NCBI GenBank assembly: GCA_023261685.1 | Contig: JAHFOM010000001.1 | Span: forward strand, 1-42,510 | Length of the DNA stretch: 42,510 bases | Direction of reading: 5' to 3' | Source: Candidatus Moraniibacteriota bacterium | GTDB taxonomy: Bacteria; Patescibacteriota; Minisyncoccia; Moranbacterales; UBA1568 | Shown here: positions 3,278 to 36,200 of the stretch, piece after piece | Numbering within the stretch: position 1 is the first letter of the stretch | Layout of the letters: every line of letters starts with the position of its first letter | Made by a program: the position numbers and the translations under genes | Notes under the pieces: model-generated | Database searches by the model: none | What the model saw: the letters and a program-made list of their open reading frames with translations, nothing else | Told to the model about the DNA's origin: nothing

Positions 3278-4498
3278 TCATCTCGAAGATGGTCTCATCA
3301 ATGAAGCGTATATTTTCAAGAGCTCCCTGAGAAAATTTTCCGCAGTCAAATCACTCACACTCTCTGCCGCCCGTACCCGAATCGGTTCCAACGACAATGA
3401 AGGAAGCTTCTCGATCAAATCCTTCAGTGCCTGGGAATCGGAAGCCGGAAAAAGAAATCCATTGACTCCGTGGATAATCCTCTCTGTCATTCCGCCCCTC
3501 TCGGTCGCCAGCACCACGCATCCAGATTGCAAACTCTCAATCACCGTATAGGGGAAATTCTCATACCATACCGAAGGAATGATGACTGCCTGAACCCGCC
3601 GCTTCAATATTTCTAATTCCGTGCCATAGAGAGCTCCCAAGAAACTCACTCGGTCCATCATATTTTTTTCTCGTGTCAGCTGTTCCAGCTTTTTTCGTTC
3701 CGGTCCATCGCCGACTATCCACAACTTCTGTTCCTTCCCCAAAAGTGCCCACGTTTCTAGCAGCGTATCCACTCCTTTTTCCGAAGAAAGCCGTCCAAAA
3801 AATAAAAAAGTATTCGCTTCGCGCCCCGTTGCATCGGTCGGAACAGAAGCTGACAAAAGCGGATTCGGCAAAAAACTGATTTCCGCTCGAAAACCAAGCG
3901 AGTGATACTTCTCAATAAGAAACCGGCTCGGTGCGATGAAACGATCTACCACACCATAACTGCGAAGACATCGGTGGAGCCACTGTTCCATCGCGCACAC
4001 CAGACTCTTGAAGAAAGAATCTTTGACGCACCGATCGATGAGACAGCGGATGCCGGAGGTATGTTCCCAGATCTTTCCGCGCACAAACAGATTGTAATTC
4101 GGGGAAACGAGCTTGTAATCATGCAACGTCATCACGACGGGAATATGGTGCTTTTTGAGGGGCCAGAAAATCGCCGGGGAGAGCTGGTGGTAGATGTTGT
4201 GCAGATGCGCGATATCCGGATGAAAGTCCTCGATCAGCTTTTCCAGTTTCTTGTGGGCTTCGAAATTGAACAGTATTTTCCCGGCAAGAACAATCTTTTT
4301 CCAAAAAGAAAGTGCCTCCTGATACTCGATATTTTCGACAAAATATTTTTCCCACACGGTCGGTCGGTTCTCCGGATGATGCATAGAAAAAAAAGCTACC
4401 GTATGCCCGCGCTCTTCGAGCATCCGCGCCATATCAAAATAAGCGCGCTCGGCGCCACCCTTCAAAAAGTGGTATTTATTGATAAGAAGAATTCTCAT
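3278..4498 (-). CDS. Glycosyltransferase family 4
   Basis: 406-aa ORF. The N-terminus MRILLINKYHFLKGGAERAYFDMARMLEERGHTV is typical of GT4. The C-terminal EX7E motif is ENFPYTVIE, followed by GCVVLATERGG. Its stop codon abuts the stop of the convergent acetyl-CoA synthetase gene (3277/3278). Confidence 0.85.
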   Translation of the reverse strand: MRILLINKYHFLKGGAERAYFDMARMLEERGHTVAFFSMHHPENRPTVWEKYFVENIEYQEALSFWKKIVLAGKILFNFEAHKKLEKLIEDFHPDIAHLHNIYHQLSPAIFWPLKKHHIPVVMTLHDYKLVSPNYNLFVRGKIWEHTSGIRCLIDRCVKDSFFKSLVCAMEQWLHRCLRSYGVVDRFIAPSRFLIEKYHSLGFRAEISFLPNPLLSASVPTDATGREANTFLFFGRLSSEKGVDTLLETWALLGKEQKLWIVGDGPERKKLEQLTREKNMMDRVSFLGALYGTELEILKRRVQAVIIPSVWYENFPYTVIESLQSGCVVLATERGGMTERIIHGVNGFLFPASDSQALKDLIEKLPSLSLEPIRVRAAESVSDLTAENFLRELLKIYASLMRPSSR

Positions 4499-6636: not shown

Positions 6637-7287
6637 TTACTGTGTAATCGCCAGATAGTATTTTTGGTACTCTGTCACCGCCTCAGGAGTCAGCTCCACT
6701 GCCGACCCATTGACGTCCAATGAGATGAGCGTGGCAACATCCTTCCCGCCCTTGTTGCGTTCAAGAATGTGGCGGGAGGATCCAAAAGGGTGTGAACCCC
6801 ATGCAATCCGCTTGCCTTTGTCATCGACAATGACAAAGGTCAGAGCCGTGACCTTTCCGAAGCTCTCTTTGGTAAAAGTGAGCTGATTAGTGACCGTCTC
6901 CGCCATAGGGGCACAAGACGTTTTGGAGAGGTCATAACGTTGACTTCCGATACCGGCCCAATCATTGCCGGCGCCGGTTATGCAAAACTGCAATCCGGCG
7001 AACCGAGCCGAATCATCAGCATAACTGACAACTTCGACTGTGCCTTTCCCGGACTCGTCCGGATATTTTTTAGCCTTTTGACTACCAGATGGCTCGTTCA
7101 GCCAAACGCCGGCATTTTTGCTGAGCGTTATATTTAACACCCCGGGCGAAACGGTTTCCACGGTCATCGTGGTTTCTCCGCCGGAACCCACAATGGGTGC
7201 GCGTGACCCGAATTGGTGGGTGGTAGCGTCGGCCAACGCCGGTTGAGACAAGAGCAAGGCGCCAAGAACAAAAACGTACTGTTTCAT
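6637..7287 (-). CDS. Secreted hypothetical protein (signal peptide)
   Basis: The ORF track gives 6637..7350. I prefer the start at 7287, where MKQYVFVLGALLLSQPALA is a classic signal peptide preceded by AAAGGAGAGAAAAG. No recognisable domain. Confidence 0.7.
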   Translation of the reverse strand: MKQYVFVLGALLLSQPALADATTHQFGSRAPIVGSGGETTMTVETVSPGVLNITLSKNAGVWLNEPSGSQKAKKYPDESGKGTVEVVSYADDSARFAGLQFCITGAGNDWAGIGSQRYDLSKTSCAPMAETVTNQLTFTKESFGKVTALTFVIVDDKGKRIAWGSHPFGSSRHILERNKGGKDVATLISLDVNGSAVELTPEAVTEYQKYYLAITQ

Positions 7288-7404
7288 CTTTTCTCTCCTT
7301 TGAGAAAGGTTGCCGACAGGATTGTCGGTCAACCGGTTAAACTGAGTCAATTGGGAAACAACTCACGTTTAGTGAGTGTTTTTTACCCATTCACTAAACA
7401 TTTG

Positions 7405-7433
7405 ATTATACACCCTCCTACTCTTTTTGTCAA
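7405..7433 (-). promoter_or_regulatory. Perfect-consensus sigma70 promoter TTGACA-N17-TATAAT driving 6637..7287
   Basis: On the minus strand, TTGACA is the complement of 7428-7433 and TATAAT the complement of 7405-7410. The spacer is 17 nt. The -35 lies exactly 9 bp beyond the end of the repeat element at 7443. Confidence 0.75.
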
Positions 7434-7442
7434 GGGCAAGGG

Positions 7443-7674
7443 CTTACATTCTATCCTAAAGTGCAATGGTTCAACCGCCAAAAGAATTTTTTGGCTCTCG
7501 TTTCACACTGTGTGAAGAAGGTCTCTCGGCTCGAAAAAAGAAGCTTCTCCGCCATTGATTGGGGGCGACTTTTTTCTCGTTCAGCCGAGAGGTCCTGATG
7601 AGTGGTGGAATGGAGACAAAAAATTACTTTTGGTGGTTGAACTGAAATGAGCAAGTATTGCACTTCAGAATAGA
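7443..7674. repeat. Rod-like quasi-palindromic element, copy 1 (unclassified structured repeat)
   Basis: 232 bp, non-coding, and homologous to 15708-15943 (core roughly 85-90 percent identical by eye). It has long complementary arms and nested inner stems, with compensatory differences between the copies. Details are in the findings. Confidence 0.85.
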
Positions 7675-7714
7675 GCTCGGGGGGAGCTACCATAAACTAA
7701 AGGAATCCCTCCCC

Positions 7715-7755
7715 CTAAAAAAGAAAAAGGCGGGAACGTCATGATCGTTCCCGCC
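7715..7755 (-). terminator. Rho-independent terminator of the LysM-protein gene
   Basis: Stem GGCGGGAACG (7729-7738) pairs with CGTTCCCGCC (7746-7755). On the minus strand it is followed by TTTTTCTTTTTT. Confidence 0.85.
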
Positions 7756-7863
7756 TGATTTGATGCATTGCATCAGTAGTGAATTTTCTTCTCTGTTCCG
7801 ATTCCAGGCCGATAGCGTGACTTACTACCCTTTTTATAGGTCCTTGGACGGAGTGAAAAGATT

Positions 7864-9558
7864 TTATTGAGTTTTCGGTATGACCGGTACCATCACGAAA
7901 CCATTGCTCGTGACGACGGCACCGGTCGTATCGATGATCTGTTTGGCACGATGTTTGGTACGAAGGACTTTAGCACCCTTCATAGCGTCACACCACCAAC
8001 CCCATGCCTGTGCGTTACCGCCGGCAATAAAGTCGTGATCATAGCCGACACCGACACCGCAAATGCGATGCGGATCAGCTATACCGATGCGGGCGCTCCC
8101 TGACTCAGCTCCAGGTTTTTCGAGGAAATACCCAAGCTGGATGTAAGGATTGAACCATTTGCCTTCGTACAACCATTGGCGTACGCCGGCATTGAAATAG
8201 AGATCAAGCTTGGAAAGCTCATCCGTATCTTCAATCGGTCTTCCTTGCCAGGAATGCGAAACGTCTCTGGAGAAGGGAAACATCAGCGTCCCGAACACTT
8301 GTGTTTCAGGAAACCATTTTTCCCCTGCCATCCTCCGCTTATAGTTGTTATAAGAGAGAGACGGACCAAACATCCCGAATTCCCGATCGCTTTCGTAGTC
8401 GCCCTGTGTGAACGACTCATCCAGCTTCCCGACGAGGAGTTTGACTTCGCTGTCCCACCCATAATCGGAGATATACTCATAGCCAGGTCCAATGGTCAAA
8501 AACTTACCCTTGAACTTGCCATCACCGCTGTTAACTTTACCATTCCACCACGAGTTCTGTGTGCCTATGCCGACACCGTGAGTCCCGTGTTCTCCGCGCC
8601 AGGTACAGTACACAGCCGCGGAGAAAAATGTGGAATGTGCGTCGTTGCCAGAATGCTTGGGTTGGTGCTCCTGTCCGATGACCAGTTTGGGATCAATCGG
8701 ACAACGTTTGGATTTTTCTTCCAAAACAGGTTCTACGGGTATGGGCAGAAGCAAACTGACTTCCGGTACCACAGTCGGAGCCTCGGGTTTAGGGAGAGAA
8801 ACTGGAATGACCCAATTCCCACACCACAGCACCTGAGCAATGACTTTCCCCGTAGAGAGAGTATATTGTCTGGCAGCAATCGCAGTGCCGGGTTTGAGTG
8901 TGCCCCAATCGGCCCGGACTTTGTGCCAGATCTCATTCTTTCCAAATGAGACTGACTCAAAGCGGTCACCGGACACAAACTGCGTCCAGGTGAACTGCTT
9001 CTGCGCTACGAGACCTTTGAGCTCAAGAATCTCTTGAGCCGTCAGTCCGTGCTGTTTCCACGCTGTTTCATTGTCGCCTCGGAAAGGATTGCCACCGACA
9101 ACCTTCCAAGAGCAATACCCTTGTGCGTCGCGCTGGCAGTCCTTCTTTTTCTCTAGGACCGTATTACGAGCAGTCAGCGTCAATGTCTTTGCAGAAGCAG
9201 CATTGACCGCCATTGCCACCATGATCTCCTTCTGAGGAGACAGGAGCAATACCTGCCCAACATGGATCCGATTGCAATCCGACAGATTGTTGATCCGGCA
9301 GACAGTCTGCCAACTGCGCGGAGCAATCGTGCTCAATGTTTCTCCCTTACGGACAATATGTGTATCCGTGGGAGTAGCCGGTTGCTGTTTCGCTATCGGT
9401 GATTTTTTCAAAACCACCAGCGACGAGACCTCTGTTTCCTGAGGCGGTAACTCCAATGCTGCGCTCGGCATTATTCTCCGGAGCGGTTCTGCAGACACTG
9501 TTTGGTTCAACAAAGAACCTCCCAGTAGCAGCAGAGCACAGATCAAAAACCTAAACAT
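7864..9558 (-). CDS. Secreted LysM-domain protein with a large uncharacterised C-terminal region
   Basis: 564-aa ORF with an AGGAG-type RBS. Signal peptide MFRFLICALLLLGGSLLNQTVSA. LysM-like segment HIVRKGETLSTIAPRSWQTVCRINNLSDCNRIHVGQVLLL. The remainder has no recognised domain. Confidence 0.8.
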   Translation of the reverse strand: MFRFLICALLLLGGSLLNQTVSAEPLRRIMPSAALELPPQETEVSSLVVLKKSPIAKQQPATPTDTHIVRKGETLSTIAPRSWQTVCRINNLSDCNRIHVGQVLLLSPQKEIMVAMAVNAASAKTLTLTARNTVLEKKKDCQRDAQGYCSWKVVGGNPFRGDNETAWKQHGLTAQEILELKGLVAQKQFTWTQFVSGDRFESVSFGKNEIWHKVRADWGTLKPGTAIAARQYTLSTGKVIAQVLWCGNWVIPVSLPKPEAPTVVPEVSLLLPIPVEPVLEEKSKRCPIDPKLVIGQEHQPKHSGNDAHSTFFSAAVYCTWRGEHGTHGVGIGTQNSWWNGKVNSGDGKFKGKFLTIGPGYEYISDYGWDSEVKLLVGKLDESFTQGDYESDREFGMFGPSLSYNNYKRRMAGEKWFPETQVFGTLMFPFSRDVSHSWQGRPIEDTDELSKLDLYFNAGVRQWLYEGKWFNPYIQLGYFLEKPGAESGSARIGIADPHRICGVGVGYDHDFIAGGNAQAWGWWCDAMKGAKVLRTKHRAKQIIDTTGAVVTSNGFVMVPVIPKTQ

Positions 9559-14464: not shown

Positions 14465-14539
14465 ATTTGTCTCTCAAAAGATATGCTTTTAGTATACCAC
14501 ACCTCTTCATTTTCCCCTTTGGCATTTTTCCCACTGGGG

Positions 14540-14568
14540 TTGACTTTTTCAGAGAAAAGGAGTATAAT
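14540..14568 (+). promoter_or_regulatory. sigma70-type promoter TTGACT-N17-TATAAT for 14610..14960
   Basis: TTGACT lies at 14540-14545 and TATAAT at 14563-14568, with a 17-nt spacer. Confidence 0.7.
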
Positions 14569-14609
14569 ATAAGAAAGACTTCTTTAACAACCAATCAGAG
14601 GGGTATAGA

Positions 14610-14960
14610 ATGACGTATGAAATTGATGAAGATCTTCTTAGAGAAGTTCTCTACGAAAAAGAATGGGCGGAAGCTATCATCATCAGCGATGATTCGGCTC
14701 TTAAGCGGATAATAAGTATTGTCGGTCAATGGTGGGAGGAAAACAAAAATAATAAAAAATTAGGGAAGTATGCTTTCCCTCGTAAACTCAACTCCACCGT
14801 ACGTGGCGTGCTCTACCACGCTCCAAGGAAGGCTAAAAACCGGTACAAGGATCTCACAAACGCCTATTTTCAGGCAGAGCTGGCAAACAAAAGGGTTCTG
14901 GAAAAAGCCGCCAGAAAGGTGGAAGAAGAAAAGAGACAACCCTCATTTAACTTTGGATGA
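14610..14960 (+). CDS. Hypothetical protein (116 aa, charged, no recognisable domain)
   Basis: The ORF has a GAGGGG RBS 7 nt upstream, its own promoter and its own terminator. Confidence 0.55.
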   Translation: MTYEIDEDLLREVLYEKEWAEAIIISDDSALKRIISIVGQWWEENKNNKKLGKYAFPRKLNSTVRGVLYHAPRKAKNRYKDLTNAYFQAELANKRVLEKAARKVEEEKRQPSFNFG

Positions 14961-14996
14961 TACTATCCACCATCCAAACAGAGATCAAAAATAGAA

Positions 14997-15027
14997 CGCG
15001 CGAGGAAACTTTCTCGCGCTTTTTTCT
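14997..15027 (+). terminator. Rho-independent terminator
   Basis: Stem GCGCGAG (14998-15004) pairs with CTCGCGC (15013-15019) and is followed by TTTTTTC. Confidence 0.85.
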
Positions 15028-15052
15028 TTCCTCTTGTTTTCTCAATCAACTA

Positions 15053-15084
15053 TCACTATTTATGCAATTGTGCAAAAAGTGATA
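15053..15084. repeat. Imperfect 32-bp palindrome centred on GCAATTG
   Basis: The sequence is ATCACTATTTATGCAATTGTGCAAAAAGTGAT. The outer pair ATCACT/AGTGAT and the central GCAATTG are complementary. It shares the TGCAATTG core with the perfect palindrome 24 bp downstream. Confidence 0.6.
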
Positions 15085-15107
15085 TGTTGTAAATCACTCC
15101 TCTATTT

Positions 15108-15149
15108 CAAATATTACTTTTCTTGCAATTGCAAGAAAAGTAATATTTG
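15108..15149. repeat. Perfect 42-bp palindrome
   Basis: The sequence is CAAATATTACTTTTCTTGCAA|TTGCAAGAAAAGTAATATTTG. I checked it base by base: 21+21 with no mismatch and no spacer. Confidence 0.95.
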
Positions 15150-15171
15150 GTCAAAAAGAATAAACTTTGAG

Positions 15172-15218
15172 AAAAGAAAAAGGCCAGAAGCGATATTTCG
15201 CGACTGGCTCTTTTTTTC
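15172..15218. terminator. Bidirectional hairpin terminator (serves 15238..15594 on the minus strand)
   Basis: The sequence AAAAAGGCCAGAAGCGATATTTCGCGACTGGCTCTTTTTTT forms stems GCCAG/CTGGC and GCGA/TCGC, with an A-tract before and a T-tract after. Confidence 0.7.
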
Positions 15219-15237
15219 TTCGTTAGACACGAAATTT

Positions 15238-15594
15238 TTACTCCGTACTTTTTTTGACTTCAGCTTCTACTGCTTCACAGACAACGGGAGTTTTTACGAC
15301 GAATGTTCCCGGTTGCGCCTCGCCATCCACATAGCGGACCTTGAGGTCAACTGTGACTGAGCAGTCCCTGATGCCTTTCAGCGGGATCTGCGACAGATCT
15401 GCTTTTTCAGTAATACTCTTACGAAAGATTGCCTGCGCTCCATATTCTAGAGTAGGAGGTATTAGATACAAGAGCATGCCATATACCATAAGTAGTACCG
15501 GAAACAGAGTGATAGCTTTCTCAAAAAGAGCCCACAAAAAACCACATGTGAAAAGAATAAGCCCCATTAGCAGTAACCATTCAAATACATCCAT
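15238..15594 (-). CDS. Small membrane protein (two predicted TM helices plus a soluble C-terminal part), hypothetical
   Basis: The ORF track gives 15238..15666. I prefer the start at 15594 (MDVFEWLLLMGLILFTCGFLWALF), because GGAGG lies 8 nt upstream and a promoter at 15670-15698 lies inside the longer ORF. Confidence 0.6.
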   Translation of the reverse strand: MDVFEWLLLMGLILFTCGFLWALFEKAITLFPVLLMVYGMLLYLIPPTLEYGAQAIFRKSITEKADLSQIPLKGIRDCSVTVDLKVRYVDGEAQPGTFVVKTPVVCEAVEAEVKKSTE

Positions 15595-15669
15595 CTTTCC
15601 ATCCTCCGTAAAAGCGTGCCAAGATATGATACCTCGGCTCAAGTTGAAGTTGTTAAGGCACTTCAAATG

Positions 15670-15698
15670 ATACTAGCACAAAACAGCCATCCCGTCAA
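15670..15698 (-). promoter_or_regulatory. sigma70-type promoter TTGACG-N17-TAGTAT for 15238..15594
   Basis: The complement of 15693-15698 is TTGACG and the complement of 15670-15675 is TAGTAT, with a 17-nt spacer. The -35 lies exactly 9 bp beyond the left end (15708) of repeat copy 2. Confidence 0.7.
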
Positions 15699-15707
15699 TA
15701 CCCGAAG

Positions 15708-15943
15708 CTTACATTCCATTCTGAAGCACACCCATACTCACCTCAGTTCAGCCACCAAAAGAATTTTTTGGCTATCGTTTCACACTGTGTGAAGAAGGCC
15801 TCTCGGTTCGGAAAAATAAGCTTTTCCGCCATTGATTGGGGGCTGATGTTTCCGGTTAACCGAGAGGTCCTGATGAGTGGTGAAATGGAGACAAAAAATT
15901 ACTTTTGATGGTTGAACCATTGCACTTCAGGATAGGATGTAAG
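15708..15943. repeat. Rod-like quasi-palindromic element, copy 2
   Basis: 236 bp, homologous to 7443-7674, with both termini CTTACAT / ATGTAAG intact. The ~17-nt arm insertion lies on the opposite arm compared with copy 1. Confidence 0.85.
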
Positions 15944-15952
15944 GAGGAAACA

Positions 15953-15981
15953 TTGACTCTTGAAGAAAAATTCATTAGAAT
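15953..15981 (+). promoter_or_regulatory. sigma70-type promoter TTGACT-N17-TAGAAT for tRNA-Lys
   Basis: TTGACT lies at 15953-15958 and TAGAAT at 15976-15981, with a 17-nt spacer. The -35 lies exactly 9 bp beyond the right end (15943) of repeat copy 2. Confidence 0.75.
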
Positions 15982-16019: not shown

Positions 16020-16092
16020 GGGTCGTTAGCTCAGTTGGTAGAGCAGTGGCCTTTTAAGCCAACGGTCGCAGGTTCGAATCCTGCACGACCCA
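16020..16092 (+). tRNA. tRNA-Lys (anticodon UUU)
   Basis: I folded the cloverleaf by hand. The acceptor stem is GGGTCGT/ACGACCC, the D arm GCTC..GAGC, the anticodon loop CTTTTAA and the T arm GCAGG TTCGAAT CCTGC. The discriminator is A and no CCA is encoded. Confidence 0.95.
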
Positions 16093-16106
16093 CACAAAAC
16101 TGAAAG

Positions 16107-16459: not shown

Positions 16460-17800
16460 CTATATGACAAGTTTTTCTTTCGGAAAACCAATCAGATCTT
16501 TCCCGACGAATGGGCGCAGGACTTCCGGTACGACCACGCTGCCATCGGCTTGCTGATAATTCTCAAGAATGGCGATGAAAATGCGCGGGCTCGGAAGCGC
16601 GGTATTGTTGAGCATATAGGCATAGTGCTTTTCCCCTGTCTTGGCATCTTTGTATTTCACGTTGAGACGGCGCGATTGCCAGTCGAGAAAATTGGAAGCC
16701 GAGCCAGTTTCGCCATAGCGGTTCATCCCCGGCATCCACGCCTCCAGATCGAACGCCCGGTACTTGCCCGCGCTCATATCCCCCGTGCAGATCTGCAGTT
16801 TGCGATAGGGAAGCCCGAGCTCGCGATGCATTGTTTCAGAGACTGCCAGCATTTCTTCTTGCAGTTTGTTTGCCCCGTCAATATCCGCCGGCGCGATGAT
16901 CACCTGCTCAACTTTCATAAATTCGTGAACGCGGTAGAGCCCTTTGGTATCCTTGCCGTACGAACCGATTTCACTGCGGTAACACGGACTGAAACCGGCC
17001 AGTTTCAACGGCAGATTCTTCTCTTCCAATACTTCTCCCGCATAATATGCGAGTAATGCCGGCTCCGATGTCCCGGCAAGAAATTTCGCCTCTTTGGAAG
17101 CACTGCCATCCGGATTTTTTTCCGCTGTAGCGACCTGATAGATTTCATCGGTTGCACCGTCATATTCCGCTCCCTTGAAATACCCGCTCCCGAATAACGG
17201 GAAGCTTTTCAAGAGCGTGGGCGGAAGCATCAATGTATAGCCCGCTGCCACCATTTTCTGCATCGCATAGAACATCACCCCCATCATCAAAAGCGCCCCG
17301 TCGTTTTTGACATAGTACCCGCGATAGCCGGCTACCTTGGCACCGCGCTCCAGATCAAGGATGTCCAACATTGCGCCGAGCTCGATGTGTGTCCGCGGGG
17401 CAAATGCAAATTGCGGTACCGCTCCGGAATTGAATACCTCGACATTATCCGCCTCATTTTTTCCGAGCGGCGTATCCGGCGACACAATGTTCGGCACCTG
17501 TGCCATCAATAGGTCGTATTCACGCTTCACCGCCGTGAGGAGAGGTTCTTGCTCATCGAGCTTTGTTTTGATTTCCTTCCCCTTGGCGATAATTTCCGCG
17601 CGTTCTTCATCCGTCTTCGCAGTCTGAATGAGATCATTGATGTCGTTTTTGAGCGATTTGAGCTCTTCAATCTCCTGAAGTAAAGCGATGCGCTCCTGAT
17701 CCTTGGCGAGCAATGCCTCCACATCAAAACCCAATCCCTTATCGGTAGCGACCTTGGCTATCACCTCTTTATTGTCTCGGATGAATTGAATATCAAGCAT
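16460..17800 (-). CDS. serS: Serine--tRNA ligase
   Basis: 446 aa. N-terminal coiled-coil arm beginning MLDIQFIRDNKE. Class II motifs include AGYRGYYVK and CYRSEIGSYGKDTKGLYRVHEF. Confidence 0.95.
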   Translation of the reverse strand: MLDIQFIRDNKEVIAKVATDKGLGFDVEALLAKDQERIALLQEIEELKSLKNDINDLIQTAKTDEERAEIIAKGKEIKTKLDEQEPLLTAVKREYDLLMAQVPNIVSPDTPLGKNEADNVEVFNSGAVPQFAFAPRTHIELGAMLDILDLERGAKVAGYRGYYVKNDGALLMMGVMFYAMQKMVAAGYTLMLPPTLLKSFPLFGSGYFKGAEYDGATDEIYQVATAEKNPDGSASKEAKFLAGTSEPALLAYYAGEVLEEKNLPLKLAGFSPCYRSEIGSYGKDTKGLYRVHEFMKVEQVIIAPADIDGANKLQEEMLAVSETMHRELGLPYRKLQICTGDMSAGKYRAFDLEAWMPGMNRYGETGSASNFLDWQSRRLNVKYKDAKTGEKHYAYMLNNTALPSPRIFIAILENYQQADGSVVVPEVLRPFVGKDLIGFPKEKLVI

Positions 17801-17845
17801 AGGTTGTGCTAAAGAATCAGAAATTATAAATCAAGAATCATGATG

Positions 17846-17919
17846 TGGTCGCTGGTGGATTCGAACCACCGACCCCAGCAATGTGAATGCTGTACTCTAA
17901 CCAGCTGAGCTAAGCGACC
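17846..17919 (-). tRNA. tRNA-Val (anticodon CAC)
   Basis: The reverse complement is GGTCGCT TA GCTC AGCTGGTTA GAGT A CAGCA TTCACAT TGCTG GGGTC GGTGG TTCGAAT CCACC AGCGACC A. It folds as a clean cloverleaf with no encoded CCA. Confidence 0.95.
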
Positions 17920-17949
17920 TTATTTTTTCTTTTCTTGATTCCTCATTCA

Positions 17950-19425
17950 CTATTCACTTTTCTCCTTCATCGGTGGGAAAATGACCGTTTCACGGATGGA
18001 GCGGTTCATCAAAATGGCGAACAGGCGCTCGCTCATCCCGAAGCCGAATGCCGGCGGCATCCCGTATTCGAGCGCTTCCAAAAAATCTTCATCCAGCATC
18101 ATTCCTTCCTTGTCCCCAGCGGCACGCAGCCGCATCTGCTCCTCAAAACGCCGGCGCTGGTCAGCCGGGTCATTGAGCTCTGCAAATCCATTACCGAGCT
18201 CGCTTTTCACGGCGATCGGCTGGAAGCGCAACACTTTTTTCGGATGCTGCGGATCGATTTTGGCAAGCGGAGACACATCGATCGGATGCCCGACCAAGAA
18301 ACATGGCTGAACCAACTTCTGCCTGACGGTTTTTTTATAGAGCGTGTCGATCATCCGTCCTTTGCCGTAGGCTGTTTCGTACTTGATACCAAGCTCGTCC
18401 GCCTTGGCCTTGAGAACTTCGACAGACACATCCGTTTCAAGATTTATTCCCGTCTCTCTCTCGAATTCCGTGAAGTAATCCACGCGGGGAAATGGCTGAT
18501 CCCAATCAACTGTCACGCCGTCATATTCCGTGGTCATCGCATCGCCCACCACGGCTCGCACGATGTCTTTGTAGAGCTTTTCTACCAGCTCCATCCCCTG
18601 CTCCATATCCATATAGGCGGCGTAAAACTCAGTATGATCAAATTCCTGCAGATGCTCCCGATCAATGCCTTCATTACGGAACACCCGCCCGATCTCAAAC
18701 ACGCGCTCATAACCGCCGACCAGCAGCCGCTTGAGAGAAAGCTCGAGCGAAATGCGCAGATAAAAATCCTGATCCAGCGCATTGTGATGCGTCTTGAACG
18801 GCTCAGCCTCCGCGCCCCCCGGAATATGTTCGAGCACTGGCGTCTGCACTTCGAGAAATTTCTCCCGCGTCAAAAACTGACGCACCGTCTGCCAGAAAAT
18901 ATTCTTCTTCACGAACAGCTCCCGCGTTTCCGGATTCATCAGGAGATCCAGATAGCGCCGACGCAAAAGCTCTTCTTCGTCTTTCAGTCCATAGAATTCC
19001 GTCGGGATGGGGCGGAGAGACTTGCCGAGAATTTTCCAATCACTCACTTCCAACGTTCGCTCTTCCTTCTTGGTCGCAAACAATATCCCGCGCGCCTCGA
19101 CAAAATCCCCCATCTCGATCGTATCGGCAAAAAGTTTCAGCTTCTCCGCACCGAGAATATTTTCGGAGAGAAAAATCTGTATGCGGGCGCTCCCGTCTTC
19201 GATATGCACGAAGCCGATCTTGCCCATCATCCGGAGCGATCGCACCCTCCCGACCAATACGAGCGACGCACCGTTCTCTGTAAAAGCATCAAAACCATCC
19301 AGCGCCTCCTGATTGGTGTGGGTCCGCTCCGTCTTCTCCGGATAGACATCGTCAAACACCTCCGCCAAACGGCTCAGTTTCGTCTGCTTGGTGGCGATGA
19401 TGTCCTCTCGTAAATCTTCTTTCAT
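17950..19425 (-). CDS. lysS: Lysine--tRNA ligase (class II)
   Basis: 491 aa. It has an OB-fold anticodon-binding N-terminal part and the class II core motif VFRNEGIDREHLQEFDHTEFY. Confidence 0.95.
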   Translation of the reverse strand: MKEDLREDIIATKQTKLSRLAEVFDDVYPEKTERTHTNQEALDGFDAFTENGASLVLVGRVRSLRMMGKIGFVHIEDGSARIQIFLSENILGAEKLKLFADTIEMGDFVEARGILFATKKEERTLEVSDWKILGKSLRPIPTEFYGLKDEEELLRRRYLDLLMNPETRELFVKKNIFWQTVRQFLTREKFLEVQTPVLEHIPGGAEAEPFKTHHNALDQDFYLRISLELSLKRLLVGGYERVFEIGRVFRNEGIDREHLQEFDHTEFYAAYMDMEQGMELVEKLYKDIVRAVVGDAMTTEYDGVTVDWDQPFPRVDYFTEFERETGINLETDVSVEVLKAKADELGIKYETAYGKGRMIDTLYKKTVRQKLVQPCFLVGHPIDVSPLAKIDPQHPKKVLRFQPIAVKSELGNGFAELNDPADQRRRFEEQMRLRAAGDKEGMMLDEDFLEALEYGMPPAFGFGMSERLFAILMNRSIRETVIFPPMKEKSE

Positions 19426-31184: not shown

Positions 31185-31205
31185 GAAACAGAAGCCTCAC
31201 TTCCC

Positions 31206-31322
31206 TATCCCCGAAAAAGAAGACTGATCGGAGGTACCGGCTTGGATTTTCAGATTGACGAGGAGGAGCTCGATGATGAAGCAAGAGCCTTTGCCCTGAC
31301 CGTCGGACTTTATTTAACAGCC
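31206..31322 (-). pseudogene. Detached histidine-kinase 3' tail, copy A (in-frame C-terminal fragment only)
   Basis: In the kinase frame it translates as IKSDGQGKGSCFIIELLLVNLKIQAGTSDQSSFSGIGK*. It is bounded upstream by a TAA stop. It is homologous to the real 3' end of the kinase gene at 33340-33462. The tracked ORF 31147..31329 reads a different frame of the same DNA. Confidence 0.65.
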
Positions 31323-31362: not shown

Positions 31363-31716
31363 TCAGCTTGATGCATCTTCGGCTTTTTTTAGCGGATACC
31401 GCGTAAGTGATTGTTTGAGCACATTGGTATCCTCAGTCGCGGTTTTCCATACCGCCATGAGATCTATACCAAAGTAATCATGGATGAGCTTGTCACGCAT
31501 ACCGCAAATATCTTTCCATGGAACCTCCGGCGTCGCATCACAACATTCCGCTGAAAGTCGTTTTGCGGCTTCTCCGATAATTTCAAGTTTTCGCATCACA
31601 CCGTCCTGAAGAAGCGTATTTTCCGAAAACTGCTCAAAACCAAGCCCTGTGACATAACGCGCGATATCGTCAACTGCCCCTATGATGTGGCCGATATACA
31701 AATTATCCTTTTTCAT
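31363..31716 (-). CDS. hepT: HepT-family (DUF86/HEPN) toxin
   Basis: The ORF track gives 31363..31824. I prefer the start MKKDNLYIGH at 31716. It carries the Rx4HxY motif RDKLIHDY and overlaps the upstream MNT gene by 14 nt. Confidence 0.85.
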   Translation of the reverse strand: MKKDNLYIGHIIGAVDDIARYVTGLGFEQFSENTLLQDGVMRKLEIIGEAAKRLSAECCDATPEVPWKDICGMRDKLIHDYFGIDLMAVWKTATEDTNVLKQSLTRYPLKKAEDASS

Positions 31717-31993
31717 AAATCGTTTGGATATCGCGTAGCACTTCGTCTCGGATAAGCGGATGCAAAGAATCCTCCGTGACAAGATCAACGTCACGACCAA
31801 CTTTCTCTGAGAGTTCCCGCTCAAGGTGAATCAATTCGAGCAGGCTCATCGGTCTGTCCAATCGCACAAGGATATCAATATCACTCGTCGCCCCCGCTTC
31901 TCCTCGGGCGACTGAACCAAAAACACCAGCGTAGGACACCCCGCCAGCCACGAACAACGGCTTCAAAAATTGCAGTTCAAGGGTCTGTTTCAT
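31703..31993 (-). CDS. mntA: MNT-family nucleotidyltransferase antitoxin
   Basis: 96 aa with the minimal nucleotidyltransferase signature GVFGSVARGEAGATSDIDILV. Confidence 0.9.
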   Translation of the reverse strand: MKQTLELQFLKPLFVAGGVSYAGVFGSVARGEAGATSDIDILVRLDRPMSLLELIHLERELSEKVGRDVDLVTEDSLHPLIRDEVLRDIQTIYEKG

Positions 31994-32039: not shown

Positions 32040-32165
32040 CTACTTCCCCAACCCCGCGAAAGAAGCCTGATCGGAGGTGCCGACTGCTATTTTCGGATTG
32101 ACGAGGGGGAGCTCGATGATGAAGCGGGCGCCTTTGCATGGACCAGCACCTTCTCCGTGGCATCC
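32040..32165 (-). pseudogene. Detached histidine-kinase 3' tail, copy B (in-frame C-terminal fragment only)
   Basis: It translates as ...GCHGEGAGPCKGARFIIELPLVNPKIAVGTSDQASFAGLGK* and is homologous to 33340-33462. It starts about 25 nt after the stop of the M20 gene. Confidence 0.65.
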
Positions 32166-32190: not shown

Positions 32191-33279
32191 TCAACTCCGC
32201 TCCAAAAACTCGATCAATATCTCATACATCTCGTAAAGAGAGTTTGTATCTACCCATTCCCCACTCTGATGCGCTCCACCTCCTTTCGGTCTATAGAGAG
32301 ATGCAGGAACGCCGGACTCGGTAAAAAAGATTGCATCGCTCGTTCCGTTCTCATATACGAACGAAATATCCTTTTTCGTACGCTCACGAAGAATGCGTAC
32401 CAGAGTCTGTACATAGTGGTCATCTTCTACCGAAGAAAACATACCATTTTCAGCAATCATCTCAACCGCTCCTCTGGATCCAATTATCTTTTTTACGAGC
32501 GTAACAATTGCTTTCAGATCTTTACTCTGTATATACCGGATGTCGAAATACCCCAGCGCACATTCCGGTATTTGATTCAAACTGTTCTCACTCTCTATCC
32601 GCGTCAGTACCACGCTTGTCCGCCATGATTCTTTGGCGTTTGGCTCAGGAAATTTTTTCGCAATAATTTCCTGCAGACGCACCATTTTCAACAGGGGGTT
32701 GTCACCTTGCCACGGTTCTGAGGCGTGTGCGCTTTTCCCTGGTACTATCACCTTGATCTGAGCAAGCCCTTTCTGTTTTAAGACAATCCCCGTTTCATGA
32801 CCACCATCGGCTATAAATGCAAAGCATCCGCGATACCTTTCTTTTTCCAAAAGCATTCGCGTTCCGTATCCGGTCGTCTCTTCATCAGACGTTAGCATAA
32901 TCGCAATTTCTTTGTCTCCCCCTTTTTTCCGGTATTCGACGGTAGCATAGAGATATGCAACGATACCAGCCTTCATATCATATGCACCACGACCGTACAA
33001 CTTTGTGCCTTTCAATATCGGTTTGAAAAGTAATTTCTCCCCCGGTACGACATCAATATGTCCTGAAAAAATTATATCCACTGTCTTTTTTGCAGTCGTT
33101 GACAGAACAAGGGCAGGGTGCCCACGAAAAACATACCTCTTTATATAAAAGTCTTCCTTGAAAAGGTTTCCCAAGATAGCGAGACACACTTCCTGTTCCT
33201 TAATATTCGGTTCAGTCGATTCAATCGCCATCAGACGTTTCGAAAGACTGATAATCTGTTTTTTCAATTCTTGTGTCAT
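32191..33279 (-). CDS. M20-family metallopeptidase (ArgE/DapE/CPG2-like deacylase)
   Basis: 362 aa with metal-ligand motifs GHIDVVPG, GRGAYDMKAG and TSDEETTG. Confidence 0.85.
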   Translation of the reverse strand: MTQELKKQIISLSKRLMAIESTEPNIKEQEVCLAILGNLFKEDFYIKRYVFRGHPALVLSTTAKKTVDIIFSGHIDVVPGEKLLFKPILKGTKLYGRGAYDMKAGIVAYLYATVEYRKKGGDKEIAIMLTSDEETTGYGTRMLLEKERYRGCFAFIADGGHETGIVLKQKGLAQIKVIVPGKSAHASEPWQGDNPLLKMVRLQEIIAKKFPEPNAKESWRTSVVLTRIESENSLNQIPECALGYFDIRYIQSKDLKAIVTLVKKIIGSRGAVEMIAENGMFSSVEDDHYVQTLVRILRERTKKDISFVYENGTSDAIFFTESGVPASLYRPKGGGAHQSGEWVDTNSLYEMYEILIEFLERS

Positions 33280-33339: not shown

Positions 33340-33462
33340 CTACTTCTTCCCCACCCCAGAGAAAGAAGCCTGATCAGAGGTGCCAGCCTTGATTTTCGGA
33401 TTGATGAGGGGGAGCTCGATAATGAATCTTGCGCCTTTGCCCGGACCGTCTGATTCCACGTG
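33340..33462 (-). repeat. Histidine-kinase 3' tail, copy C (the one still attached to the gene)
   Basis: It encodes IHVESDGPGKGARFIIELPLINPKIKAGTSDQASFSGVGKK*. By eye it is roughly 75-80 percent identical in nucleotides to copies A and B. Confidence 0.8.
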
Positions 33463-35049
33463 GATATGACCGCCGTGCGCTTCGACGAAGTTCTTGCCGA
33501 CGAAGAGTCCGAGTCCCGTACCGGAGACCACCATCTTGGTCGTTTCATTGCTCCGGCTGAATTTCTCAAACAATTTATTCTTGTCTTCGGGGTGAATGCC
33601 GATACCAGTGTCTGAGACGATGATGCGCGCTACCCGGTCATCCCCCTCCACTGATACTGTGACTCCCCCCTCCTTGGTATACTTCAGAGCATTGTCGATC
33701 AGATTGGACACGACTTCTTTGATCTTGCCCGCATCCAGCGTGAGCTTGGGCAGTCCGACTTTCGGCAGATGGATCTTGAGCGAGAGCTTCTTGTTCTTCG
33801 CCGCCAGAGCGAACATATCCACGAGCTCCGCCACCAGTGGCTCCAGCTGTGTCGGTGCAAAAGCATACTGGATGCGTCCCGCTTCAATGCGCGAGATATT
33901 GAGGAGATCTTCTACCAATTGCACGAGCCGGCTGTTGATGGTATAGAGTTTGTCGAGTACGTCTTGGATCGCCACGGGGACTTTGCCATAGGAGCCTTCG
34001 AGGATGAGCGAGACATAGCCCTTGATAGCGGTCAGCGGCGTGCGCAACTGGTGCGAAGCGATGGAGATGAATTCCGATTTTGCCATATCGAGCTCGCGCA
34101 AGCGGTCATTGGCGACTGCCAGACTGTTCGAAAGTTTCTGGAGTTCTTCCTTGCGCTCTACTTCCGCTTTAACCGACCGGATGAGAATCCAACCAGCCAC
34201 CAGCGTAATGATGAGCGTAATACTGACCAAGATATAGTTCATCATACTAGTCACCACTGTCAGCATCGCGGCAATGAGGAGAAACTGCGTCACCACCAGC
34301 GCCTGCGCCCCGATGAGCTTGATATCAAAGGCTTTGAATTTGACGATGAGGTAGGCGAGGAAACCAATAAATACTGGCATTCCAAAAAGTCCATATTGTT
34401 CCCATTCAAAATTATCAAACAGACTCGCCCAATAACTACTTATAGAAAAGGAGAGGAGGAAGAAACCAATTCCTATTGTAAACAACAAAATTTTTCGCTT
34501 TTCTTCACGCTTAATCGCTTTTCTGTAGCGAAAGAATGAAACTCCTAAAATCCAAAATAATAATAAAAAGCCCACGATATAGTAGTAATCCGTGTAGAGT
34601 TTTGCTTCTGTTGATTCACAATTTGGAACATCAAATCCACTTAAATGAAAGTTGGTCATCGATAAAATAATCACTGGGAGCAATAGCATCCCAAAAATCA
34701 ACTTTTTATTAAGAGAAATATCACATCCATTTAGAAAAGAATAAAAGAGATAGACGGCTGATACATATATCAACATATAAATAACCCCCAAATATGCCCA
34801 TGTAAACATTATTTTGCTCCCATCCGTAGTCGTCCAAATAATCAAATCAAAATACGACCATAGTGAAAAAAATATAGAGAGCATCAAAAGTAAGCGGGCT
34901 GAGATATTTTTTCTATTTTTGACAAAAACAAACAAAGCTAACAATAAGGATACTGCCGCTGTCGGTATGTGAGAATAATACAATAACAATGGGTTTGATT
35001 GAATAAACTGATAGCAACTTTCGATATTGGTGACTAAGTTGAAATTCAT
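33340..35049 (-). CDS. Sensor histidine kinase with an N-terminal ~7-TM sensor domain
   Basis: 569 aa. H-box SIASHQLRTPLTAIKGY, N-box NLIDNALKYT, G1 DTGIGI and G2 GTGLGL. The N-terminal ~270 aa are polytopic membrane. Confidence 0.9.
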   Translation of the reverse strand: MNFNLVTNIESCYQFIQSNPLLLYYSHIPTAAVSLLLALFVFVKNRKNISARLLLMLSIFFSLWSYFDLIIWTTTDGSKIMFTWAYLGVIYMLIYVSAVYLFYSFLNGCDISLNKKLIFGMLLLPVIILSMTNFHLSGFDVPNCESTEAKLYTDYYYIVGFLLLFWILGVSFFRYRKAIKREEKRKILLFTIGIGFFLLSFSISSYWASLFDNFEWEQYGLFGMPVFIGFLAYLIVKFKAFDIKLIGAQALVVTQFLLIAAMLTVVTSMMNYILVSITLIITLVAGWILIRSVKAEVERKEELQKLSNSLAVANDRLRELDMAKSEFISIASHQLRTPLTAIKGYVSLILEGSYGKVPVAIQDVLDKLYTINSRLVQLVEDLLNISRIEAGRIQYAFAPTQLEPLVAELVDMFALAAKNKKLSLKIHLPKVGLPKLTLDAGKIKEVVSNLIDNALKYTKEGGVTVSVEGDDRVARIIVSDTGIGIHPEDKNKLFEKFSRSNETTKMVVSGTGLGLFVGKNFVEAHGGHIHVESDGPGKGARFIIELPLINPKIKAGTSDQASFSGVGKK

Positions 35050-35972: not shown

Positions 35973-36081
35973 ACCCTTTCGGAATTACTCATTAACTCCC
36001 ATACTCATCAGCATACTCAGCCACCGTGCCACAAAAAACAAAACAACATACCTAAAAACAAGCATCCTTATCACTGCTTTG

Positions 36082-36109
36082 ATTATACAATAAACCCCTC
36101 TTTTTGCAA
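36082..36109 (-). promoter_or_regulatory. Candidate promoter TTGCAA-N16-TATAAT for 35097..35972
   Basis: The complement of 36082-36087 is TATAAT, immediately preceded by TG. The -35-like TTGCAA lies at 36104-36109, inside a small hairpin (CCCCT/AGGGG). Confidence 0.45.
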
Positions 36110-36200
36110 GGGGGGAAAGGCAGGAGCAAACCTATTCAGAGAGGCACTCAAGCCCTGACACTCCCATACAACCCGCCCTCCTTGATATATTTCAAAACAT

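Follow-up and report, generated by a model that had tools for sequence, protein, structure and literature searches.

A 42,510 nt stretch of DNA from a Candidatus Moraniibacteriota bacterium (assembly GCA_023261685.1, contig JAHFOM010000001.1, positions 1 to 42,510 of the forward strand; hereafter, the window) carries two copies of a structured intergenic unit of about 236 bp, referred to here as the rod. [quoted passage not shown] A preliminary description of this DNA, made from the sequence alone, held that the rod fits no class. This was too strong, as its layout closely parallels that of neisserial Correia elements (PMC2649163). Of the three hypotheses raised there (a 6S-like rod RNA, a MITE or a protein-bound DNA switch), a MITE is supported by the multiple copies, their dispersal and variable presence, the lack of coding sequence and the inverted ends, while a 6S-like RNA is weakened.

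Copies and anatomy of the rod

Copy 1 (W1) occupies nt 7443-7680 and copy 2 (W2) nt 15708-15943, both on the + strand and each ~236 bp in length; across all copies the unit measures 236-240 bp. The two-copy unit initially reported at 7443 and 15708 is borne out by the sequence at both coordinates. The left end given for copy 1 stands, while its right arm reaches a few bases further than the 232 bp first assigned to it, to ~7680. Over the whole unit the two copies align at ~82% identity, and over their cores (7478-7632 and 15755-15907) at 90.4%, against an early estimate of 85-90% for a core of ~150 bp. Their right termini are unlike (..AGAATAGAGCTCGG in W1 and ..GGATAGGATGTAAG in W2).

The window is a housekeeping segment of a chromosome, with genes for LysRS, SerRS and AsnRS/AspRS-type synthetases, MreB/MreC, PBP2, GreA, RRF, a two-component system and polysaccharide genes. 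A scan of GTDB (one genome per species) with a 24-mer query from the 3′ core gave seven contig matches (L001-L007), all from a single metagenome-assembled genome (MAG), CAYGEA01. Throughout most of the ~8 kb in which it is syntenic with the window, this MAG shows 95.7-97.5% identity, and 87.8% across the part containing the rod, tRNA-Lys and SerRS. At ~96% identity to the window, it places all known copies in one species-level lineage, the only one sampled, within which the rod is dispersed over at least 7 distinct loci. The genes neighbouring the other MAG copies are unrelated to those of the window copies, so that the loci are non-orthologous. CAYGEA01 is titled 'uncultured Bdellovibrionales' in spite of its nucleotide identity to the window, and the best named relatives of the window LysRS and NusB are 'Candidatus Moranbacteria/Moraniibacteriota' MAGs of the Candidate Phyla Radiation (CPR); the label of the MAG is probably wrong.

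Copies in L002, L003, L005, L006, L007 and L020 lie at contig ends or run off them, and core identities within the MAG may be inflated by collapse or homogenisation of repeats during assembly. An independent ENA assembly (L019, ERZ27279942), a same-strain duplicate of copy 1, matches the 576-bp intergenic region around this copy at 576/576 positions, and copy 1 is therefore not an assembly artefact. A Logan contig (L020) ends exactly at the first bases of the rod; together, the match and the break indicate that the element is real and that it breaks assemblies.

Exact-pattern scans gave no match in JGI metagenomes, with either the 5′ core or the 3′ core, and none in IMG/VR viral contigs, and copy 2 (15700-15950) had no match among PLSDB plasmids or INPHARED phages (blastn, word size 11). 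The homology searches suggested in the preliminary description brought no new members: nhmmer (E<=10; window and L001-L013) gave no diverged, partial or further copies, and a covariance model run over 143 kb, later loci included, found only the known copies and L019. Long palindromes were also sought in the relatives L011, L012, L014 and L015, and none was found.

An alignment of nine copies shows three parts in each: a core of 152-155 bp, a short (S) arm of ~35 nt, and a long (L) arm of ~47 nt that carries ~13 extra nt without a partner on the S arm. The core is itself a hairpin, bounded by the palindromic A/T stems CCAAAAGAATTTTTTGG and CAAAAAATTACTTTTG. Copy 1 begins with the S arm (7443-7477, terminus CTTACATTC), followed by a core of apex type A (7478-7632) and the L arm (7633-7680), which has the subfamily-1 terminus ..AGAATAGAGCTCGG. 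In copy 2 the L arm comes first (15708-15754, terminus CTTACATTC), followed by a core of apex type B (15755-15907) and the S arm (15908-15943, terminus GGATGTAAG). Cores are 96-100% identical inside a subfamily and ~90% between subfamilies; the arms are 57-77% identical between copies, even where the cores are identical. Nearly all of the core variation lies in the apical stem, which is of type A (CGGCTCGAAAAAAG...) or type B (CGGTTCGGAAAAAT...), with a third variant of the apical loop in L006. The perfect 15-bp palindrome noted at the outset (TTCACACTGTGTGAA) was confirmed at 7502-7516, in the 5′ half of the core only, and at 15779-15793, and it is invariant in every copy that retains the region. 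A parS-like reading of GTTTCAC..GTGAA was rejected, the similarity being limited to a half-site.

The outer ends of the rod are inverted repeats of the form CTTACATYC...GRATGTAAG. Terminal inverted repeats are present in W2 (CTTACATTC...GGATGTAAG), with related termini in L001, L005, L006 and L007. Subfamily 1 (W1 and L002/L003) has a different L terminus (..AGAATAGARCTCRG), and one terminus is degenerate or of another type in W1, L002/L003 and L004. Outer termini have decayed on the right of W1, L002 and L004, and in L007, as expected for ageing copies of a mobile element.

Arms and core do not share one orientation across the two subfamilies. The left arm of W1 is 88.9% identical to the reverse complement of the W2 right arm, compared with 57.4% to the W2 left arm read directly, and the extra segment, found in the right arm of W1 (7643-7656) and the left arm of W2 (15731-15742), likewise aligns crosswise. 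The cores, by comparison, are 90% identical directly and 65% in reverse complement. Since the arms align crosswise and the cores directly, the subfamilies differ by an inversion of the core with respect to its arms, with break points that fall within the palindromic A/T stems. Core orientation tracks both apex type and terminus type and, given this linkage, the inversion looks like one or a few old events rather than continuing switching.

Insertion at promoters and the 9-bp spacing

Alleles without the rod were found in the relatives L011, L014, L021, L022 and L023. At the rpmF-nusB-rnc locus of L021, L022 and L023, the upstream gene (murJ or other) is followed directly by ..GTC-TTG(T/C)CA-17-TA(C/G)AGT, whereas L001 carries a 238-bp rod, preceded by the murJ stop codon (+10 nt) and followed by TTATGCGTC-TTGTCA-17-TACAGT, and the 9-mer TTATGCGTC is homologous to the native TGATACGTC of L021. 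At the tRNA-Lys locus, L011 has AGGAAAACA-TTGACT-17-TAGAAT back to back with the promoter of a divergent BNR gene and no rod, whereas in the window and in L006 the rod ends 9 bp ahead of the same tRNA-Lys -35 box; compared with L011, the window locus also has ~1.2 kb of extra sequence with two small open reading frames (ORFs). In L014 the copy-1 locus has flanks otherwise nearly identical to those of the window; promoter, 9 bp and ~32 nt of the S arm are retained there, but neither core nor L arm is present. This S-arm remnant is similar to the solo repeats that deletion leaves behind in the case of Correia elements (PMC2649163). As the same promoters stand without the rod in relatives, these allele comparisons show it to be an insertion at pre-existing promoters. 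The possibility that the element brings its own promoter was rejected, because promoter and 9-bp spacer are both present at rod-less orthologous sites.

The outward flanks of the rods were scored by the same criteria as the promoter scan. A promoter-like site begins at an offset of exactly 9 in five of the nine complete flanks (W1-S, W2-S, W2-L, L001-S and L002-S), each with a 17-nt spacer. At copy 1, the 9 bp between the S-arm terminus and the -35 hexamer (7434-7442, - strand) lead to the host promoter TTGACA-17-TATAAT (7405-7433, - strand), which faces the gene of a 216-aa secreted protein (6637-7287, - strand). Copy 2 is flanked by two divergent promoters at an equal distance of 9 bp. On its S-arm side (15944-15981, + strand) are the spacer 15944-15952 and the promoter TTGACT-17-TAGAAT (15953-15981) that drives tRNA-Lys(ttt) (16020-16093); on its L-arm side (15670-15707, - strand) are the spacer 15699-15707 and the promoter TTGACG-17-TAGTAT (15698-15670), leading to a gene for a 118-aa protein (15238-15594, - strand). 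A sixth flank, L004-L, has a promoter-like site at offset 8, and L007-S has TTGACG at offset 9, after which its contig ends. The background frequency of promoter-like sites is 9.2e-4 per position and strand, and the 9-bp register is very unlikely to have arisen by chance, even with a hundred-fold enrichment of such sites in intergenic DNA.

The 9-mer spacers are not conserved among copies, and only the -35 hexamer is common to them. At five independent loci the S arm is directed towards the promoter, and the L arm usually points to the 3′ end of the upstream gene (LysM with its terminator, murJ, an unknown ORF, ruvX and a ygjP-like gene). Apart from the L014 remnant, no solo S-arm motif was found elsewhere in the window or the loci, and the motif was rejected on this count as a general promoter-upstream signal.

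Like the rod, Correia elements (CREE/NEMIS, Neisseria; PMC2649163, PMC10969869) are short intergenic palindromes that lack coding sequence, occur in multiple copies and have inverted terminal repeats enclosing a conserved, directional core. Both have two alternative end types that are combined differently, usually lie just 5′ of genes with promoters at one or both ends, vary in presence between strains, and leave solo end fragments after deletion; inversion, seen here in the core, has been reported for Correia elements, and transcripts of the rod would, like those of Correia elements, form long hairpins. An IHF site and cleavage by RNase III are known for Correia elements (PMC2649163, PMC10969869). 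The likeness is architectural only, as the rod shows no sequence similarity to the 26-bp Correia repeat ends and core, and its host belongs to the CPR rather than Neisseria. It is also longer (236 bp compared with 104-157 bp), with pairing along nearly its whole length. Correia elements duplicate a TA target, whereas comparison of the L021 and L001 junctions shows no TA duplication for the rod, and their promoters consist partly of element sequence, whereas the whole promoter and 9-bp spacer beside the rod are native, with the element at a fixed distance from the -35 box.

Other MITE-like repeats, such as ERIC/IRU, BOX and RUP, can alter the expression of neighbouring genes and are, like the rod, small, non-autonomous, intergenic, hairpin-forming and lineage-restricted (PMC10969869). 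Unlike the rod, none has been reported at one exact distance from a -35 hexamer, and in most of them the terminal inverted repeats are well conserved and the target is duplicated, whereas the termini of the rod are its least conserved part and no duplication is seen. The best precedent for its placement is provided by the 'dif hunters' of the IS1202 family (ISAjo2, ISAba71; PMC10132070), which insert 5 bp from a XerC-bound site in a fixed orientation; the landmark is a Xer site for them and a promoter element for the rod. These are autonomous 1.5-kb elements with a TnsB-like DDE transposase and 5-bp target duplications, in contrast to a non-coding rod of 236 bp without duplication. REP/BIME sequences differ in being imperfect palindromes of 20-40 nt, often clustered, in genomes with a RAYT (Y1 HUH) gene; the rod is a single 236-bp unit, and no RAYT-like gene occurs within the 42.5-kb window.

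When compared with the features of MITEs set out in PMC10969869, the rod is shorter than 1 kb, lacks coding capacity, has terminal inverted repeats, and is present in dispersed copies that vary in presence or absence among relatives. Several points weigh against a mobile element of this kind. No target-site duplication was detected between the empty L021 and filled L001 junctions, nor at W2, W1 or L007 (an AAG duplication considered at copy 2 was not reproduced at other copies). The conservation gradient is opposite to that of a typical MITE, with cores 90-100% identical and the terminal repeats least conserved, which could reflect a sequence-specific function of the core, gene conversion or assembler homogenisation. 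No transposase or recombinase gene was found in the window or among the screened flanking ORFs of the MAG loci. The exact 9-bp spacing could have arisen from selection for a promoter-linked function instead of targeting. Lastly, the + strand of the core folds more stably in 6/6 full copies, by 3-9 kcal/mol, a bias that would fit a single-stranded functional form, although it amounts to a single observation because all cores descend from one ancestor. Given the missing duplication and the inverted gradient, the rod is termed MITE-like and not a proven MITE.

If the rod is MITE-like, its copies would be mobilised in trans by an enzyme. The missing target duplication argues against classical DDE cut-and-paste, and the exact -35 register with a native promoter and spacer points to a ruler mechanism of target choice that starts at the promoter edge, in which the enzyme would keep a set distance from the -35 box or a protein that binds it. 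The core may have been inverted by recombination, or by template switching during replication, between the perfectly palindromic A/T stems that border it. The hairpin would then reflect a DNA palindrome (a single-stranded hairpin or cruciform substrate, together with palindrome correction) and not a selected RNA fold, and any effect on the host would be exerted via the adjacent promoter or via hairpins in read-through transcripts.

A more specific and tentative proposal, to which we give rather less credence than to the MITE-like classification, is that rods are 'promoter hunters': non-autonomous elements whose enzyme uses the -35 hexamer, or the sigma factor or RNA polymerase bound to it, as a ruler, and places the palindrome exactly 9 bp upstream, favouring one orientation and leaving the target unduplicated. 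Such an enzyme could possibly bind the invariant core, folded as a hairpin of DNA or RNA. Promoter-tethered integration has a precedent in Ty3, which inserts at Pol III genes, and promoter hunters, if real, would be a bacterial counterpart in a reduced CPR genome.

As a repeat family the rod is ordinary, since many bacteria carry lineage-specific MITE-like palindromes. Its placement 9 bp from the promoter, precise to a single nucleotide at five independent loci and backed by empty sites, suggests that the promoter edge is a target landmark; if this is mechanistic, it could be used for promoter-proximal insertion of DNA. In full-text literature searches, no description of promoter-edge target choice by bacterial elements was found, nor any paper on MITEs or structured non-coding RNAs in the CPR.

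Alternative explanations and the question of an RNA

The fixed 9-bp register with the -35 box, S arm proximal, might also mean that the rod is a domesticated DNA module, kept upstream of promoters for its action in cis. It might serve as a platform for a protein, bound for instance at the palindrome TTCACACTGTGTGAA or at the S-arm terminus (about -45 to -63), or form a cruciform and so take up supercoils or shield the promoter from the gene upstream. In agreement with this, L014 dropped the core and L arm yet retained the S arm, spacer and promoter, and between the window and L006 the rod and promoter are better conserved than the tRNA-Lys leader. The core is invariant even at unpaired positions and in its perfect palindrome, and the potential for cruciform formation is strong (copy 2 folded as DNA gives -48.9 kcal/mol, z -7.3). 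Against it, relatives carry the same promoters without any rod, presence or absence varies among close relatives, and the distance from the palindrome to the -35 box differs by ~90 bp between subfamilies because the core is flipped. The downstream genes also lack a common theme (tRNA-Lys, rpmF-nusB-rnc and unknown secreted proteins), and no binding protein has been identified. Retention for a promoter function is considered unlikely.

Another possibility is that the rod is a structured non-coding RNA gene or RNA element, such as a 6S-like rod, an RNase III substrate or a protein-binding RNA, in which the core + strand would be functional. The single, long and imperfect hairpin of the preliminary description forms in both copies, whichever strand is folded. 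As RNA, the + and - strands reach -98.7 kcal/mol (z -10.1) and -91.1 kcal/mol (z -10.0) in copy 1, and -93.9 kcal/mol (z -8.1) and -87.9 kcal/mol (z -7.2) in copy 2; none of 200 shuffles folded as well. A fold of such stability (z about -8 to -10) favours an RNA, as do the constant advantage of the + strand and the concentration of G-U pairs there (4-6 in the core, compared with 0-2 on the - strand, in the six full copies), although a bias in G-U pairs would fit a DNA hairpin with G-T pairs equally well. Changes in the apex stems are compensatory, those in the arms are of the transition type that passes through G-U, and the internal loop GUGUGAAGAA/UGAUGAGUGG, invariant across copies, could give tandem sheared G-A pairs.

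The differences on which selection for the fold was first proposed, CGGCT/AGCCG versus CGGTT/AACCG and CGAAAAAAG/CTTTTTT.. versus CGGAAA/TTTCCG, are both real. That the fold is under selection is not established by them, as only 5/69 pairs change on both sides. Three of these five represent a single A/B subfamily split, and their number was equalled by 110/500 shuffles, the robust measure, on which covariation is non-significant (97.6% of alignment cells are paired). Covariation is thus weak and rests mostly on one subfamily split. Long DNA palindromes can acquire symmetric changes via template switching or gene conversion, and flipping of arms and core can mimic covariation. Caution is called for in RNA-motif discovery, since a DNA palindrome can present as a highly stable rod whose changes seem compensatory.

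Searches of Rfam 15 gave only two tRNAs in the window at gathering thresholds, with no match on either copy, and at E<=10 only chance-level matches on both copies. Signals for independent expression are also missing: the promoter scan gave no sigma-70-type promoter inside the rods or pointing into them, no conserved terminator was found in them, and the adjoining promoters all point outward. The promoter and terminator first described as flanking copy 1 do exist; both are on the - strand, the promoter reading away from the rod and the terminator (7756-7728) belonging to the gene of a LysM protein (7864-9558, - strand). This strong intrinsic terminator (7728-7756, - strand) lies outside the repeat, is conserved in the rod-less L014 and L015, and at copy 1 stands between the rod and the sole gene able to read into it. 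With respect to the genes beside it, the better-folding strand of the core runs antisense in subfamily 1 (W1, L002/L003) and sense in subfamily 2, so that no consistent strand is presented for transcription. The rod does resemble 6S and other rod-like RNAs in its size (~200 nt) and its rod-shaped fold with an internal loop. 6S RNA comes from a gene present once, under a promoter and terminator of its own, and has a large central bubble, whereas the rod is multi-copy, strain-variable, devoid of expression signals of its own and without an Rfam 6S match. The rod is absent from the same loci in relatives and dispensable at a given locus, and an RNA function is considered improbable.

Other functions that could be read from the sequence were also rejected. 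No ORF or reading frame is common to the copies, and frames and stop codons vary among them, including those of an 80-aa ORF at 7451-7693 (- strand). A hammerhead or box C/D-like motif (CUGAUGAG...GAAA) has no match to ribozyme or K-turn families, and its stem II is impossible. The extra loop of the L arm, considered as a guide complementary to the flanks, showed by eye only 4-5-nt chance matches to them; -10-like hexamers in the L-arm insert, candidates for an inward promoter, are not conserved and none was called by the scan.

The sharp fall in identity between core and arms (96-100% within a subfamily and 57-77%, respectively), together with the two orientations of the core relative to the arms, could be explained if a young mobile core of ~155 bp had inserted, in either orientation, into the centre of older promoter-adjacent palindromes made of the S and L arms. 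Some insertion sequences do target the centres of REP palindromes (PMC1525189). A nested element of this kind is nevertheless very improbable: no palindrome of S and L arms alone occurs in the window or the examined loci (L014 has the S arm alone), the empty sites of relatives lack the arms as well as the core, and identity declines gradually outward without a single fixed boundary, while the MAG cores may have been homogenised by the assembler.

Least probable of all is an invertible DNA switch (inverton), in which a recombinase acting on the inverted A/T stems flips the core to cause phase variation; although the core occurs in both orientations relative to arms and promoter, is bounded by inverted near-palindromic sites of 17-19 bp, and has a parallel in the inversion reported for Correia elements (PMC10969869), its orientation follows subfamily (apex and terminus type) in a way that points to one or a few old events, is the same where two assemblies cover one locus (W1 = L019; W2 vs L006), so that both states are not seen at one locus, and the core has no promoter within it and no recombinase gene in the window or the screened MAG flanking ORFs.

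Further observations in the window

The region that holds copy 2 differs from its counterparts in other ways. The BNR-repeat gene and tRNA-Lys are divergent and 114 bp apart in L011 (10900-11160), while the same pair is ~1.5 kb apart in the window (14465-15943), separated by two small ORFs without Pfam matches and by copy 2 of the rod. The segment looks like an insertion-prone spot. A perfect, loopless 42-bp palindrome (CAAATATTACTTTTCTTGCAA|TTGCAAGAAAAGTAATATTTG) is present at 15108-15149, between the convergent small ORFs 14610-14960 (+) and 15238-15594 (-).

Downstream of this region, L006 (700-3420, corresponding to window 16460-19425) lacks tRNA-Val and the SerRS-LysRS intergenic region (window 17621-18016), and its SerRS and LysRS genes read as a single ORF of 889 aa. 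The tRNA-Lys leader and acceptor stem of L006 also differ from those of the window despite ~96% identity in the flanks. These differences could be due to local recombination or to an assembly error.

The ~110-nt 5′ leader of the 216-aa protein gene beside copy 1 contains a stem-loop with a 9-bp stem (7361-7395, - strand; GTTTAGTGA...TCACTAAAC). This stem-loop is conserved in L014 and possibly has a regulatory role in the leader. Other promoters of the window (36078-36113 and 4003-4024) are extensively similar to those adjacent to rods (CTTG(A)CAAAAAGAG...TGTATAATCAAA, and GACTCTTGAAGAAA), which suggests a lineage-typical extended consensus rather than a common mobile origin.

Three direct repeats of ~110 nt, 74-81% identical, occur at 31197-31317, 32040-32160 and 33343-33463. 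The last of these is the 3′ end of a histidine-kinase gene (33340-35049, - strand), and a HepT-like toxin gene (31363-31824) is flanked by the other two, which are located within short ORFs upstream of an M20 peptidase gene (32191-33279). The repeats have the look of gene-end fragments, duplicated and left behind as cassettes inserted in succession.

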